NCBI RefSeq assembly: GCF_036507355.1
Contig: NZ_AP027877.1
Source: Escherichia coli
GTDB taxonomy: Bacteria; Pseudomonadota; Gammaproteobacteria; Enterobacterales; Enterobacteriaceae
Length of the DNA stretch: 64,000 nucleotides
Strand: one strand, 5' to 3'
This document shows positions 49,401-55,400 of this stretch, piece after piece. How positions within the stretch are numbered: the stretch's first letter is position 1; each line of letters opens with the position of its first letter. Made by a program: the position numbers.

Positions 49401-52400
49401 GCGGGCGTGGAGTGACAGAAAAGCGTTACCTGCGCTGCTCTGGCAGCACCGCATGGATGAACCCATCGGTGTTTACACCGAAATGAAGGAAGACGATGTC
49501 GGGCTTTACGTCAGGGGACGGTTGCTTATTGATGATGATCCCCTCGCAAAACGCGCACATGCACACATGAAGGCCGGTTCGTTAACCGGCCTTTCTATTG
49601 GGTACGTCCTGAAAGACTGGGAATACGACCGGAGCAAAGAAGCCTTTCTGCTGAAAGAAATCGACCTCTGGGAAGTCAGCCTGGTGACGTTCCCGTCTAA
49701 CGACGAGGCGCGGATCAGCGACGTCAAGAACGCACTGGCCCGCGGGGAAATCCCCGAACAGAAAAAAATCGAAAGAGTCCTGCGTGATGTCGGACTCTCC
49801 CGTACCCAGGCCAAAGCATTCATGGCCGGGGGCTATGGCGCACTGTCCCTGCGCGACGCTGAGGATGTGGGCTCTGCACTGAATGCACTGAAAAATCTGA
49901 ACTTCTAATCAGGAGAAATACGATGGCGGTTGATATTAAAGATGTCGAACAGGTCGCGCAGGAGCTGCAGCAGAAGTTTGACGACTTCAAAGCAAAGAAC
50001 GACAAGCGCGTGGATGCGATTGAGCAGGAAAAAGGCAAGCTTGCCGGGCAGGTGGAAACCCTGAACGGGAAACTCAGCGAGCTGGAAAATCTCAAAAGCG
50101 ACCTTGAAAAAGAGCTGTTTGAGCTGAAACGTCCGGCAACGGCGTATGTCGAAAGCGGGGTGCTGCGCATTCAGCGTGATGTCACCACGTACAGGAAAAA
50201 TGCTTACGGGGTTGCGGATAACAGCTACCTCGACAGCGAGACGCTGCATACCAGTGCGTATGTACTGCGCAAACTGAAATCCGTCATTACCAGTAAGTAC
50301 GGGCGTCACAAGCTTGCCAGCGACGGTACCCGCTTTGGTCCCGGTCAGGCGATTGTCACCCCGGCGGTGATCAAAGGGGAACTGCTGGCAACCTACCGTC
50401 AGCTTGGGCGTGCGGGGATCGTGGAAAACTACGAACTGTTTAAGCAGTACCTGGTTGTGGAGCGTGATGCCAGCGATCCGAACCGCCTGAACACGCTGTT
50501 CCCGCCTGACTATGTTAACCAGTTGCGTGTCTTTGCCGTGGTTAACCAGTTCCGTCTTCAGTATTCAGAGGAGTCTGCATAATGGCCCGTATCGGGGGAA
50601 CCTGTTATTTCAAAATTGACGGTCAGCAGCTATCGCTGACCGGCGGCATTGAGGTGCCCATGAACAGGACGGTCAATGATGACATCATCGGCCTGGACGG
50701 TTCAGTGGACCGCAAAGAAACTCACCGTGCGCCTTATGTCAAAGGGACCTTCAAGGTGCCGAAGAATTTTCCGGTGAGCAAAATCACCTCGTCTGATGAG
50801 ATGACCATCACTGCCGAGCTGGCAAACGGTCAGGTCTATGTACTGTCGTCTGCCTGGCTGCACGGCGAAGCGAACCATAATGCCGAAGAAGGCACGGTCG
50901 ATCTTGAGTTCCACGGTGAAGAAGGGGATTACCAGTAATGAAAGAGCTTGAGTTAAAGAAACCGATTACCGCTCATGGCGAGACACTCTCCGTACTGGAG
51001 TTTGATGAGCCCACCGGGAAAGATGTCCGCGAGCTGGGATATCCCTACCAGATGAATCAGGATGAGTCCGTCAGACTTCTGGCGCATGTGGTATCGAAAT
51101 ACATCGTGCGGCTGCCCTGATGCGGGAGCTGGATCCGCGCACCACCACTGAACTGATAAACCGCTGGGAGCGTCTGTGCGGCCTGCCGGATGAATGTATT
51201 CCGGCGGGAACGCAGACCCTTCGCCAGCGTCAGCAACGGCTGGATGCGAAGGTTAATCTGGCGGGCGGCATCAATGAGGATTTTTACCTTGCACAGCTTG
51301 CTGCCCTGGGCAGACCAGATGCCAACATCACGCGATACGACAAAAGCACGTTCACCTGCTCATCGGTCTGTACTGACGCGGTGAATGCGCCGGAATGGCG
51401 GTATTACTGGCAGGTCAACATGCCAGCTGCCACCAACACCACCTGGATGACATGTGGCGATCCCTGTGATTCCGCACTGCGTATCTGGGGCGACACCGTT
51501 GTCGAGTGTGTGCTTAACAAACTCTGCCCGTCGCATACCTACGTAATTTTTAAATATCCGGAGTAATTCATGCATCGTATAGACACGAAAACCGCGCAGA
51601 AGGATAAGTTCGGCGCGGGTAAGAACGGTTTTACCCGTGGTAACCCCCAGACCGGCACGCCTGCCACCGATCTGGATGATGACTACTTTGACATGTTGCA
51701 GGAGGAGCTTTGCAGCGTGGTGGAGGCATCCGGTGCCAGCCTGGAGAAGGGGCGGCATGACCAGCTGCTTACAGCGCTTCGTGCGCTGCTGTTAAGCCGC
51801 AAGAATCCGTTTGGTGATATCAAATCGGATGGCTCGGTGAAAACGGCTCTCGAAAACCTTGGTTTGGGAGATGGCTCGGGGCGTTACAGCAAAACTGTCG
51901 TTTTTTCATCGTCGGGTTCATATACGTGGCCAGCTGACGTAAAACGAATTGACGTTATTCTGACTGCGGGGGGCGGCGGTGGCGGTGGATGTAACGCGGA
52001 GAACGCAAATCAGACATTTTCAGGGGCTGGCGGAGGAGCCGGAGGTACTGTTTTTGCCACTATTTATGCGACAGACAACGATGCCGGGCCAGGGACCTAT
52101 ACAGTGACAATTGGCAGCGGTGGTAGTGGTGCCAATGGGCCAGGGTCTGGAAATAATGGCGGTAATAGTTCGTTCATGACATTAACTGCGCTCGGCGGCC
52201 AGGGTGGGCAATGGGGCGGCGCTACAAATACCGCTGGCGGGCGCGGTGGCTCAGGCTCTGGCGGTTATAAAACTGAATAAGGCGGAGACGGTTCAGACGG
52301 ACAGGCGGGCCAGGCGCTATTAGTAGGCAATGGGGCATCGAGCTATTGGGGTGGCGGCGGCCGCGCTGGGCAACTGAGCGGTAATCCTGGAGTTTGCTCT

Positions 52401-55400
52401 GGCTCCGGCGGCGGGGGTGCATACGATAATAGCTATTCACACACGTCAGGACGTGGCGGGCACGGAGCTAATGGCGTGCTGGTAATTCGGGAGTTCATGT
52501 AAATGAATGATATCTATGCAGTTGTTGATAATAACGTTGTTATTAATGTCATTATCTGGGACGGAATTTCTGAATGGAAACCAGAGGCTGGTAATTTAGT
52601 TCCGTTAAACGGCGATGCTGGCATCGGTTGGTCATATTCAGACGGAGTATTTACCGCGCCACCTCCCCCAGAACGCTCTCACAACGCGTTAGTTGCGGAG
52701 GCTGAGCTGCAGAAATCAGCACTACTGACCGTAGCAAATAACACAATAGCACCGCTGCAGGATGCCGTTGATTTGGAAATGGCGACAGACGATGAACAGG
52801 CGTTAATGCTGGCGTGGAAAAAATACAGGGTACTGCTGAACCGTGTTGATACCTCAGCGGCACCCGAAATAGAGTGGCCTACGCAACCGGGGGAGCGGGC
52901 CAGTTGATATCAGGCGCAGCGTCAGCATCAACTGCTGTCACTGCGTCGATGTAGTCGAGTACCGCATTCAGCCGCGTTTTTTCATCATCAGTCAGTTTGC
53001 GGCCTGCACTTCTCCGTTGACATCTTTGTTATATGGTACAACTGCGCAGAGGCCTGTCTCTTCAATTGTGCCAGTTGAATACTACGATACAACGCTCGGC
53101 CTTCCTGTTTGGTGGAACATAACCACATCCACATGGAAAAGAGCTGATGGTGTAGATGTATAAACTTAAAAAAGGCGCTTTTTAGCGCCTTTAAATTAAG
53201 ATATTCTTTTAGCTATAGAATGACCTATATTTATAAACGGTTTTTCTATTACGTTATATATCAAGTAAGATAGGCTTATAGAAATTATGAGCGATGATAT
53301 ATAAATGGCAAACGATCTATGTTCAGTGCTAATACCAATACTGGAACCGTAAAACTCAATAAACTGTATAACAGGAACATGAATCAGATAAAGTGAATAT
53401 GATATTCCACCAAGAGCAACAAGTGATTTATTGAATGAAATAACTTTATTATTTTCTAGAATAATAACACACAAAACAATCAGAAATGCAATATATGCAG
53501 ATCGCGTCAAACCATGTCCTTCAGACACCCCATTAAGCCAAAAAACAAACATCATTCCTAGAATGAAAACGCATAAACTATTTATAATAGAATTATTCAT
53601 TCTTTTATGCCTAAGTAAAGGCATTGTCTCTGATATAATCATCCCTAAAATGAAATCATATACTATAGGATTGCCTATGAATCCTATATGAGAAAACACC
53701 CCTGTTTTTGCAATATTGAATGATTGGGCGTCAATTACTACCGAGTGGTTAAAGTAAAGAGAAATAATTGTACTTACAGCAACTAGAAAACATGATGTGA
53801 TTAATACCCTGTATTTTATGCTTAATGACATGGATATTGCGAAAATAAAATAAAAATATATCTCGTACCCAAGTGACCATGAAACAATTAGCGTTCCCCA
53901 CCCATAATATGGCGGTAGAGTTGAGACATCTAAAGGGATGAGAAGAAATGATTTTATAATATTATTTATAGAAAAAACACCACCCCATGATACGCCTGTG
54001 TAAATATTGTGGTAAAAAAGAAAAACATAAACGCTTAATACTATTGCGTAAACAGGATAAATTCTAAAAAATCTCTTTACAAGAAATGAGGCGGTATTTC
54101 TTAAAGATGTTTTTGTAAAGTTTTTAGTTGAGTATGATATTATAAATCCGCTTATTATAAAAAACAATTCAACTCCAAATATAGCATTCGCGGTTATCCT
54201 GTCCATGAAAGAACCAGGATCTACTTGCCCGAAAAGACCTCTATTATGACCAATAGCTACAGCAAGAGCTGCAATTCCACGAAGCGCTTCTATTCCGTAT
54301 AATTTATCTGTTTTCATCAAGTAATATAGTTAGTAGTTGATAAAATTGTTGCTGGAGTCTACCACCAAGAGCTTGGATGATCGACCAGTTAGCATCTCAA
54401 GCTGTATGCGTGAGACAAAAACGAGACACACAAAGCTTTGCAAGTCTTTGCGCTGTTTACCTATGATACCTTCTCCTCAATCCAATCCGCCCACCACTGC
54501 ATCATTTCTCTGCGCTTATCGAGATACTGAGCATGGTTGTAAATCCCGCGCACAGATCCGCCGTTGGCATGTGCCAGTTGCACTTCAATAGCATCAGCAG
54601 GCCATTCGTGCTCGTTCATAATCGTGCTGAATTCATGCCTGAATCCGTGACCGCTTTCCAGACCTTCATAGCCGATTTGTTTGATCACAAGCAGTACAGC
54701 GTTCTCGCAAATTGGCTTCTTCTTATCGTTGCGCCCGGCAAAAACAAACTCTGATACTGGTTTGGTGATTGAACTTAGCGTAGTGAGAAGTTCAACTACC
54801 TGGTCTGACATAGGAACCACATGAATCTTGCGTCCCTTCATCACACTGGCCTCGATGGTGATAATCCTGTTTTCAAAATCGACGTTCTTCCATTGCATGG
54901 AACGAAGCTCTTTTGTTCTTAGTGCTGTGTAGCGTAAAACTTTGGTCGCAATGAGAGATACGATACTTCCTGAAAATGTTGCAAGTGCTTTGTTGAATGC
55001 CGGGATCTGGTCGGCAGGTAAAAACGGGAAGTTCTTCTTGCGGTATCCTTTCATGGCGTCTGCAAGGTCAGGTGCCGGGTTATATTTAGCCCTTCCGGTG
55101 ACAATAGCGTAACGAAAAACCTCGCCGCATCTTCTGCGGGCTTTGTTGGCTCGCTCCATTGCACCGCGATCTTCAAATCTTCGGATTACTTCCAGCAGTT
55201 GCATCGGCTCAATATCCTGAATTTCAAGACCGCCGATGATGGGTAAAATGTCGTCATCAAACATTTTGGCAAGTTCAGTTGCATAGCCTACTGACCAGAC
55301 TTGCTTCTTGTGCTCGTACCATTCCTTGTAAATCGCACTAAATGAATTGTTGTTAGACGAAGCCTTTTTCGCCTTTACCGGATCGATGCCAACCGAGATG

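Follow-up and report, generated by a model that had tools for sequence, protein, structure and literature searches.

How should an ochre codon be read that stands in frame within a prophage tail-fibre gene of Escherichia coli: as a nonsense mutation, as an error of sequencing, as a site of readthrough, or as a change that serves the host? The first three of these readings were named in a preliminary description of the window, by which we mean the whole 64,000-nt stretch of contig NZ_AP027877.1 (assembly GCF_036507355.1) analysed here. In our view the locus is, very probably, a tail-fibre pseudogene, in which a C-to-T change at 52278 turned CAA (Gln237) into TAA within a 310-codon gene in the course of ordinary prophage decay.

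Layout of the interrupted gene

The single TAA described at 52278-52280 in a fibre gene spanning 51570-52502 was borne out by the ORF list and the translation. The frame opened by the ATG at 51570 halts at codon 237 to give a product of 236 aa, and the same frame past the TAA is stop-free over 52281-52499 and ends at the native TAA at 52500-52502 (Table 1). The 74 further glycine-rich codons reported for this stretch need a small correction, as the frame is indeed open but amounts to 73 sense codons and the native stop. The described junction with the downstream gene is equally real: the motif atgTAAATGa at 52497-52506 joins the fibre end to the tfa ORF (52503-52907), whose ATG directly follows the native stop.

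Openness of the frame is, taken alone, weak evidence, since 6.5% of base shuffles of this G-rich 219-nt stretch were likewise stop-free; the decisive point is therefore the collinearity of 52281-52502 with the 3' end of intact 933-bp homologues, with no base differences from the closest of them (loci L001 and L002). No in-frame ATG, GTG or TTG restart giving an ORF of at least 40 aa was present in the ORF list after the stop, which rules out a split gene with separate translation of the C-terminal part. Promoter and terminator counts over 51000-53400 equalled the shuffle expectation. The segment beyond the stop is presumably no longer expressed.

Table 1. Features of the fibre locus and the adjoining prophage, in window coordinates (L004, the intact LSC52 prophage)
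Feature	Coordinates	Strand	Remarks
Chimeric ORF from deletion 1	49923..50582	+	Capsid N-terminus and sheath C-terminus; Phage_sheath_1C at residues 98-210
Deletion 1 junction, ~4.2 kb	50135..50138	.	Major-capsid gene joined to tail-sheath gene; L004 12105-16326 absent
Deletion 2 junction, ~7.4 kb, 13-nt overlap	51102..51114	.	Tail-assembly-chaperone gene joined to ymfQ interior; L004 17307-24727 absent
YmfQ / Mu Gp48-like baseplate gene remnant	51120..51566	+	Phage_Mu_Gp48 profile positions 40-149 of 150
Truncated tail-fibre ORF	51570..52280	+	236 codons and premature TAA; docking module (~codons 1-100) and first ~63% of Gly_rich_2 domain
Premature ochre TAA, codon 237	52278..52280	+	CAA (Gln) in intact alleles; C-to-T transition at 52278
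Orphaned fibre 3' end	52281..52502	+	73 sense codons and native TAA 52500-52502; last glycine-rich loops, terminal beta-strand GVLVIREF
tfa, tail-fibre assembly chaperone, intact, 134 aa	52503..52907	+	Pfam Caudo_TAP E 3.3e-32; PHROG 188 tail fiber assembly protein
Relic of a second, inverted tfa, 3' end only	52879..53007	-	Coordinates projected from L001-L004
Acyltransferase-3 family gene	53196..54320	-	Pfam Acyl_transf_3 E 9.4e-29
Prophage integrase, IntS type	54461..55654	-	Pfam Phage_integrase and Arm-DNA-bind_3; PGAP 'prophage integrase IntS' in L001, L004
tRNA-Arg(CCT), argW, attachment site at prophage right end	55780..55854	-	ARAGORN; PGAP tRNA-Arg adjoining intS

The stop codon among homologues

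When the gene was compared with its intact homologues, a sense codon stood at the site and the frame continued in all intact alleles. The closest ones, L001 and L002, differ from the window at two of 933 bases, namely 51834 (Ser89 in the window, Thr in the alleles) and 52278 (TAA in the window, CAA in the alleles), and L001-L004 all have C at the position equivalent to 52278. CAA (Gln237) was found in every complete E. coli genome carrying the segment (66/66) and at codon 237 in 21 of 21 IMG/VR loci; a TAA-centred 34-mer had no match in 5,426 complete E. coli genomes, and a search of JGI metagenomes returned no contig with the TAA allele, against 11 contigs for the CAA control. Intact homologues, which are common among E. 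coli prophages and metagenome contigs, measure 310 codons, and nearly every one of the 120 best protein clusters has a length of 310 aa. Of the 22 distinct collinear alleles, 20 have CAA and an open frame as far as codon 311 and two have TAA, which none of the distant homologues has, so that the stop is not a conserved one.

No orthologue was found to end at the position of the TAA, and in every homologue at 44-69% identity the alignment reaches query residue 304-310 and the homologue's own C-terminus. Among the options that the preliminary description had named, a nonsense mutation is the one that the comparison sustains, CAA standing at this site in every intact homologue examined and the frame beyond it being the conserved end of the glycine-rich domain. 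Mutagenesis of the fibre tip by a diversity-generating retroelement was rejected by reasoning, the change being C-to-T and not adenine-directed.

The fibre protein and the part beyond the stop

The identification of the gene as a tail fibre held for both of its parts. Over the first ~100 codons, identity is 95% to the SfIV/SfI tail fibre and 93-94% to those of SfV and SfII, and residues 114-307 match Pfam Gly_rich_2 (PF21722; profile positions 2-224 of 226, E 8.5e-19, 68.9 bits, cut-off 24.3) in a search done on the protein with Gln restored at 237. An NCBIfam scan of the same restored protein gave no family, and tblastn against the phage collection recovered the N-terminal module only, the glycine-rich part probably being masked as low complexity. 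AF2 modelled the domain with pLDDT >90, the terminal strand falling at 303-309. The best Foldseek matches were the Pam3 fibre structures 7ypx_A (E 2e-11) and 7yfw_a; below them came the Bxb1 tail tip and then LTK/ALK TG domains, and E was 2.5e-8 for 9d93 and 1e-3 to 1e-2 for the LTK/ALK TG domains. As modelled, the restored domain has the TNF-like/glycine-rich fold of Pam3 gp24, with a beta-sandwich and a glycine-loop lattice.

The window holds no complete Gly_rich_2 domain in one uninterrupted ORF, as residues 237-310 lie past the TAA; among them are G255, G278, G280, G299 and G302, all five of which are invariant. The window copy is a pseudogene of the Gly_rich_2 family and not a functional member, and its truncated product would be expected, from the sequence, neither to fold nor to form the trimer of a functional fibre tip. 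The dedicated Tfa chaperone gene directly downstream of the fibre gene is as expected for Gly_rich_2 fibre tips.

A defective prophage at argW

The prophage resembles SfI/SfII/SfIV and is inserted at argW; its chromosomal flanks are at best 98.9% identical to those of any complete E. coli genome. Its virion gene set is incomplete, a blastn comparison with the intact LSC52 prophage having revealed two deletions of ~4.2 and ~7.4 kb in the window. The first took the genes for connector, head closure and tail terminator together with most of the sheath gene, and the capsid gene lacks its 3' end; the second took the tape-measure, DNA-circularization and baseplate genes. At the second junction the tail-assembly-chaperone ORF is cut short (Phage_TAC_7 positions 2-45 of 79), and the YmfQ remnant lacks about the first 40 profile positions, the intact gene measuring 585 bp in L001-L004. 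The same region measures 17.2 kb in the functional phages SfII, SfI and SfIV, as compared with 6.4 kb in the window. Because the two deletions took head, sheath, tape-measure and baseplate genes, the prophage is, judging by its gene content, dead and unable to make particles.

Exact look-up of the capsid::sheath fusion protein, aimed at sister genomes with the same deletion, found it not on record, and that of the 148-aa YmfQ remnant returned 23 contigs, which are unrelated relics or gene-caller start choices that do not share this junction. Towards the attachment site, the inverted tfa relic (at the collinear position in L001-L004, PGAP has 'tail fiber assembly protein, missing N-terminus') is probably a leftover of an invertible tail-fibre segment. 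The acyltransferase-3 gene is a probable lysogenic-conversion cargo with a predicted role in O-antigen acetylation, and gtrA/gtrB/gtr-type genes occupy its position in other strains.

A second occurrence of the stop and the order of events

The exact 236-aa product is on record as BED21563.1 from a 4.64-Mb E. coli genome and on the ENA contig ERZ27234713 k141_84828. This contig has the same TAA and Ser89 as the window and differs from it at four other bases, of which three are synonymous in the gene and one lies just upstream of the ATG. In its own deletion the tape-measure gene is joined directly to the fibre start; the two deletions are non-nested, and neither can be derived from the other. 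Short-read assemblies may be chimeric, yet TAA and Ser89 must be in the reads of this contig. Since an independent contig with a different, non-nested deletion shares TAA and Ser89, the stop is real and inherited, and is older than both the 7.4-kb deletion of the window and the deletion of the contig. The mutation had been called possibly recent, a term that fits the lack of any further change downstream of the stop but not this order of events. The downstream 222 nt are without secondary lesions in both TAA alleles, which speaks neither for nor against decay, as under neutrality, too, no change would be expected in a short time.

Discussion

In an intact fibre of this type, the first ~100 codons would form the baseplate-docking module common to SfI/SfII/SfIV/SfV, and the remainder the TNF-like/glycine-rich receptor-binding domain. 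Translation of the window copy would now stop after residue 236, with the consequence that a single interlocked domain would lose its last third and the fibre, in all likelihood, its function. The stop arose in an ancestor prophage still in possession of the structural genes, before the 7.4-kb deletion, and different deletions followed in at least two descendant lineages. Nothing would select against such a stop, because a prophage without these genes is unable to make particles anyway, and neutral decay would then be the cause.

What counts against decay is that the TAA allele persisted through at least two subsequent deletions; its truncated product may be tolerated or useful. It could be supposed on this ground that the 236-aa protein, or the whole locus, is kept for a host-beneficial function and that the stop is adaptive, given that the allele survived in two lineages with later independent deletions, that both deletions spared the fibre-tfa-acyltransferase-integrase end, and that the two TAA alleles differ within the gene by three changes, all of them synonymous. 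We nevertheless consider this very improbable. The cut falls inside a single compact domain, with the invariant glycines and the terminal strand lost, so a folded product is unlikely; as to the three synonymous changes, two of them fall in an N-terminal module common to, and exchanged among, hundreds of fibre genes, and are probably imported standing variation rather than the trace of selection on the TAA allele. The att-proximal end is, moreover, expected to persist where a cargo gene and the integrase sit there, and the allele itself is extremely rare. Less probable still is a particular use by the host of the 236-aa product (docking module and partial glycine-rich domain), or of a low-level readthrough product, for instance as a decoy, as a superinfection-exclusion factor, or together with the baseplate of another prophage.

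Equally slight is the chance that the stop is bypassed, whether through programmed readthrough or with the help of an ochre suppressor tRNA, such that some 310-aa fibre is still made. The downstream frame is fully open and unchanged in two TAA alleles, and low-level natural readthrough exists at every stop codon. Programmed sites, however, are conserved stops, and here a sense codon occupies the position in every homologue. Such is the case of the Qbeta A1 protein, made by programmed readthrough at UGA, genuine readthrough stops being conserved and usually leaky UGA or UAG; the window resembles it in having an open extension of coding appearance after an in-frame stop, but the stop of the window is UAA and is absent from intact relatives. 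Of the three stops, UAA leaks least in E. coli, and here it is followed by G, UAAG reportedly being an efficient termination signal. The RNA downstream of the stop folds no better than shuffles (z = -1.04), and no suppressor tRNA was found in the window, whose sole tRNA gene by ARAGORN is tRNA-Arg(CCT). A full-length fibre would also be without an attachment partner, the tape-measure, baseplate, head-completion and most sheath genes being gone. With neither a conserved stop, nor a stimulatory RNA structure, nor a suppressor tRNA, the readthrough once entertained for this gene found no support.

Least likely of all is the sequencing or assembly error proposed as a further option, in which the true sequence would be CAA and the gene intact: the single-base difference from very close alleles and the absence of TAA from complete E. 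coli genomes would suit it, but the same TAA recurs in an independent metagenome contig with other base differences and a different deletion junction, the site does not lie in a homopolymer run long enough for miscalls (sequence ACTGAATAAGGC), a substitution is not a typical long-read error, and in a prophage so demonstrably defective elsewhere a pseudogene is unsurprising.

Several known phages and prophages are close to the element in the window. The structural module, with head and Mu-like tail genes, is 97-98% nucleotide-identical, over the retained parts, to those of the Shigella flexneri phages SfI, SfII, SfIV and SfV and of E. coli vB_EcoM-689R6, and the first ~100 codons of their fibres are 93-96% identical; the Sf phages likewise carry an integrase and O-antigen-modifying cargo by a tRNA attachment site (53196-55854 in the window). 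In contrast, the similarity of all these phages to the window ends at ~51871, beyond which their receptor-binding C-terminus is different, and they are complete and plaque-forming, whereas the window prophage is short of ~11.6 kb of structural genes. A parallel is the cryptic prophage CPS-53 (KpLE1) of E. coli K-12, at argW with intS and the fibre pseudogenes yfdL and tfaS; going by the K-12 annotation, it is a decayed element at the same site that keeps an integrase, O-antigen-modification cargo and broken fibre genes, while its gene content and lesions are different.

For the tip itself, the nearest known system is gp24/gp25 of cyanophage Pam3 (PDB 7ypx/7yfw; PMC9608196), whose fibre follows the same three-part plan, with an N-terminal helical docking domain, a TNF-like beta-sandwich and a distal glycine-rich loop lattice. 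Pam3 gp24 gives a weak sequence match aligning to the shared C-terminal strand, and a Tfa-type chaperone gene likewise lies directly downstream. It differs in being only ~23% identical, and the N-terminus of the window fibre is of the SfV/Mu type. In Pam3 the lattice is centred on the first and last glycine loops (PMC9608196), and the window copy, cut at residue 236, is without the last glycine-rich loops.

The finding matters mainly for annotation: the locus is to be recorded as the pseudogene of a tail fibre within a defective prophage at argW, and neither as a 236-aa 'carbohydrate kinase' nor as a recoding site. Of minor use, it offers an ordered case of prophage decay, in which the point mutation came before independent deletions in sister lineages, and it indicates that SfV-like prophages of E. 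coli can bear a Pam3-type TNF-like/glycine-rich tip on a conserved SfV-type fibre N-terminus.

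Reading frame and intact homologues

The window's tail-fibre gene is a pseudogene of a known family, and the defective prophage around it is likewise of a known kind. The preliminary description of an in-frame TAA, an open glycine-rich continuation and a junction with tfa, the tail-fibre assembly chaperone gene, matches the sequence, in which the native stop abuts the ATG of the ORF 52503-52907 (atgTAAATGa, 52497-52506). The remaining two frames of the 219-nt stretch after the premature TAA contain four stops each, and shuffling the bases of this G-rich stretch leaves it open in 6.5% of cases as well. 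An open frame past the TAA, taken by itself without homology, therefore suggests coding only weakly, and homology, not openness, is the real test. None of the in-frame start codons after the TAA yields a separate product of at least 40 aa.

Features of the fibre gene and its prophage; deletions were mapped by alignment to the intact prophage of strain LSC52 (L004) at the same site
Feature	Position in window	Strand	Details
Tail-fibre ORF	ATG 51570 to TAA 52278-52280	+	236 codons
Frame beyond premature TAA	open to 52499, native TAA 52500-52502	+	73 further sense codons, Gly-rich
Capsid::sheath chimeric ORF	49923-50582		product of deletion junction
Deletion 1, ~4.2 kb	junction 50135-50138, 4-nt overlap		L004 12105-16326; capsid gene to sheath gene
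Deletion 2, ~7.4 kb	junction 51102-51114, 13-nt overlap		L004 17307-24727; tail-assembly chaperone to ymfQ
Acyltransferase-3 cargo gene	53196-54320	-	
IntS-type integrase	54461-55654		
tRNA-Arg(CCT)	55780-55854		

Comparison with intact homologues, as the preliminary description had advised, places CAA at the stop site in every set of relatives. With 51570-52502 as query, megablast gave 65 full-length matches among 5,426 complete E. coli genomes (98.5-99.8% identity; annotated as "glycine-rich domain-containing protein"); in KK19-02 the fibre gene is one 933-bp CDS of 310 aa (WP_044061110.1). Only two bases separate the window from the closest alleles, those of the intact-frame loci L001 and L002: at 51834 the window has Ser89 and they have Thr, and at 52278 they carry C, so that their codon 237 reads CAA (Gln). 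A 63-mer bearing the CAA matched 66 complete E. coli genomes, 46 of them exactly, its TAA version matched no complete E. coli genome exactly, and megablast with a 34-mer that has the TAA at its centre gave zero matches in the 5,426; GCGGTTATAAAACTGAATAAGGCGGAGACGGTTC is the k-mer that marks the TAA allele. All 21 IMG/VR contigs with the flanking pattern have C at the site, and in the JGI metagenome collection the CAA version occurs on 11 contigs and the TAA version on 0. The frame stays open to codon 311 in 20 of the 22 distinct collinear alleles, and the best 120 protein clusters, jointly covering well over 1,000 contigs, are nearly all 310 aa long.

PGAP is inconsistent on the intact 933-bp ORF (L001 4001-4933, the intact-frame locus L003 4001-4933 and many RefSeq genomes), calling a single 310-aa CDS in some genomes and an "stfP" pseudogene plus a 212-aa CDS, whose start lies partway along the same uninterrupted frame, in others. 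The frequent GenBank name "carbohydrate kinase" looks spurious, because the fold is that of a fibre.

The glycine-rich tip

Codons 1 to ~100 are 93-96% identical to the N-terminus of the tail fibres of the Shigella phages SfIV, SfI, SfII and SfV and of E. coli myophages, and nucleotide similarity to SfI/SfII/SfIV ends at ~51871 (~codon 101), a module boundary that makes the fibre gene internally mosaic. The same tip also occurs on other N-terminal modules in IMG/VR and metagenome loci (L006, L011, L014, L029 and L031).

Once Gln is restored at the stop, the Pfam Gly_rich_2 match (E 8.5e-19) takes in residues 114-307 of the protein and positions 2-224 of the 226 in the profile. Among 1.84 billion representative proteins searched, homologues reach down to 44% identity. 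Orthologues ending at the stop site would have spoken against a nonsense mutation; instead, every homologue covering the Gly-rich part matches to query residue 304-310 and to its own C-terminus, fibres of 485 to 1,405 aa included. In a 26-protein alignment, the part past the stop site holds five of ten invariant columns (G255, G278, G280, G299 and G302) and four of eleven that are nearly invariant, together with the SYWGGGGR and GSGGGG-AYD motifs and the terminal hydrophobic strand.

The AlphaFold2 model has pLDDT >90 throughout the Gly-rich domain, with the last strand at 303-309. Its top Foldseek matches in the PDB are the cyanophage Pam3 fibre structures 7ypx_A (E 2e-11) and 7yfw_a (E 2.5e-10), followed by the tail tip of mycobacteriophage Bxb1 and by LTK and ALK through their TNF-like/glycine-rich ("TG") domains; the sequence alignment with the Pam3 fibre is weak, and runs up to the C-terminal strand of both. 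In Pam3 gp24 six extended loops build the glycine-rich domain as a lattice, with the first and the last loop at the centre, and the Tfa-like chaperone gp25 grips this distal part while folding proceeds (PMC9608196). The gene downstream of the window's fibre, 52503-52907, encodes a Caudo_TAP fibre-assembly chaperone (E 3.3e-32). By homology, the 236-residue product would be missing parts from the core of one interlocked domain and is not expected to fold into a functional tip. That the truncated protein is useful nevertheless is an unlikely idea, and one for which we found no positive evidence.

Prophage context

The prophage carrying the fibre gene is integrated at argW. Its structural module shares 97-98% identity with SfII/SfI/SfIV, and the region that spans 17.2 kb in those phages is 6.4 kb in the window. 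Besides the chimeric ORF, the junctions have produced truncated chaperone and Gp48/YmfQ ORFs, and the connector, terminator, tape-measure, DNA-circularization and baseplate genes and most of the sheath gene are missing. Judged by this gene content, virion assembly would be impossible, and the fibre gene would therefore no longer be selected for what it normally does. In other strains the element is found in different states of erosion, GIMC1405, for instance, retaining tail genes only.

An inverted second tfa relic (52879-53007, minus strand) overlaps the 3' end of tfa and suggests a former invertible fibre segment whose invertase is gone. Beyond it lies an unannotated 48-aa ORF (53017-53163, plus strand; …GTTAQRP…YYDTTLGLPVWW…) with no Pfam match. 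Acyltransferase-3 holds the cargo position by intS in the window, LSC52 and GIMC1405, whereas in KK19-02 and 042 gtrA/gtrB/glucosyltransferase genes adjoin the same fibre-tfa pair, in a prophage near ybhB, not argW; such varied cargo points to exchange of O-antigen-modification genes as cassettes. The chromosomal flank 55700-64000 (yfdC to fadJ) reaches at most 98.9% identity, typically ~97-98%, in the 5,426 complete genomes; by contrast, the fibre gene reaches 99.8% identity with alleles of unrelated strains. Complete genomes therefore sample the host lineage sparsely, and the module of the prophage is mobile.

A second carrier and the order of decay

The exact 236-aa product occurs in two records, a 4.64-Mb genome of E. 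coli (BED21563.1), from which the window probably derives, and a 1,060-bp ENA metagenome contig, L005 (ERZ27234713 k141_84828). L005 has both the TAA and Ser89. Four other bases set it apart from the window, three of them synonymous changes in the gene and one just upstream of the ATG. Its first 100 nt come from the tape-measure gene interior (98% identical to SfV 11441-11540 and L004 19208-19307), and connect, by way of a short and imperfect microhomology, with the 15 nt that precede the fibre ATG (L005 1-108), a deletion of ~5.9 kb that is not nested with the window's. Since L005 keeps tape-measure sequence absent from the window and lacks ymfQ sequence present there, the deletions are independent, neither being derivable from the other; two derived changes common to both elements then indicate identity by descent.

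A sequencing error, one of the readings first proposed for the TAA, is disfavoured by its recurrence with Ser89 beside a different deletion, and the nonsense mutation is in all likelihood real. Readthrough or recoding, likewise proposed, is also disfavoured, with nothing in its support: the TAA is absent from all relatives, the stop is UAA followed by G, downstream RNA folds no better than shuffles (z = -1.04) and the window holds no suppressor tRNA gene.

A nonsense mutation, the leading reading of the preliminary description, was thus right, given CAA in relatives and a conserved downstream frame. It arose in an ancestral prophage with the tape-measure and ymfQ genes still in place, and is older than the window's second (7.4-kb) deletion and that of L005; its order relative to the first (4.2-kb) deletion lies outside what L005 can show. 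That it was called recent holds in part: the 222 nt past the TAA carry no further change, but the mutation predates both of those deletions. The protein family (PF21722, Pam3 gp24-type tips), the SfV-like serotype-converting myophages and prophage erosion by point mutations and deletions are already known, and only the order in which decay proceeded, as reconstructed here, is mildly instructive.
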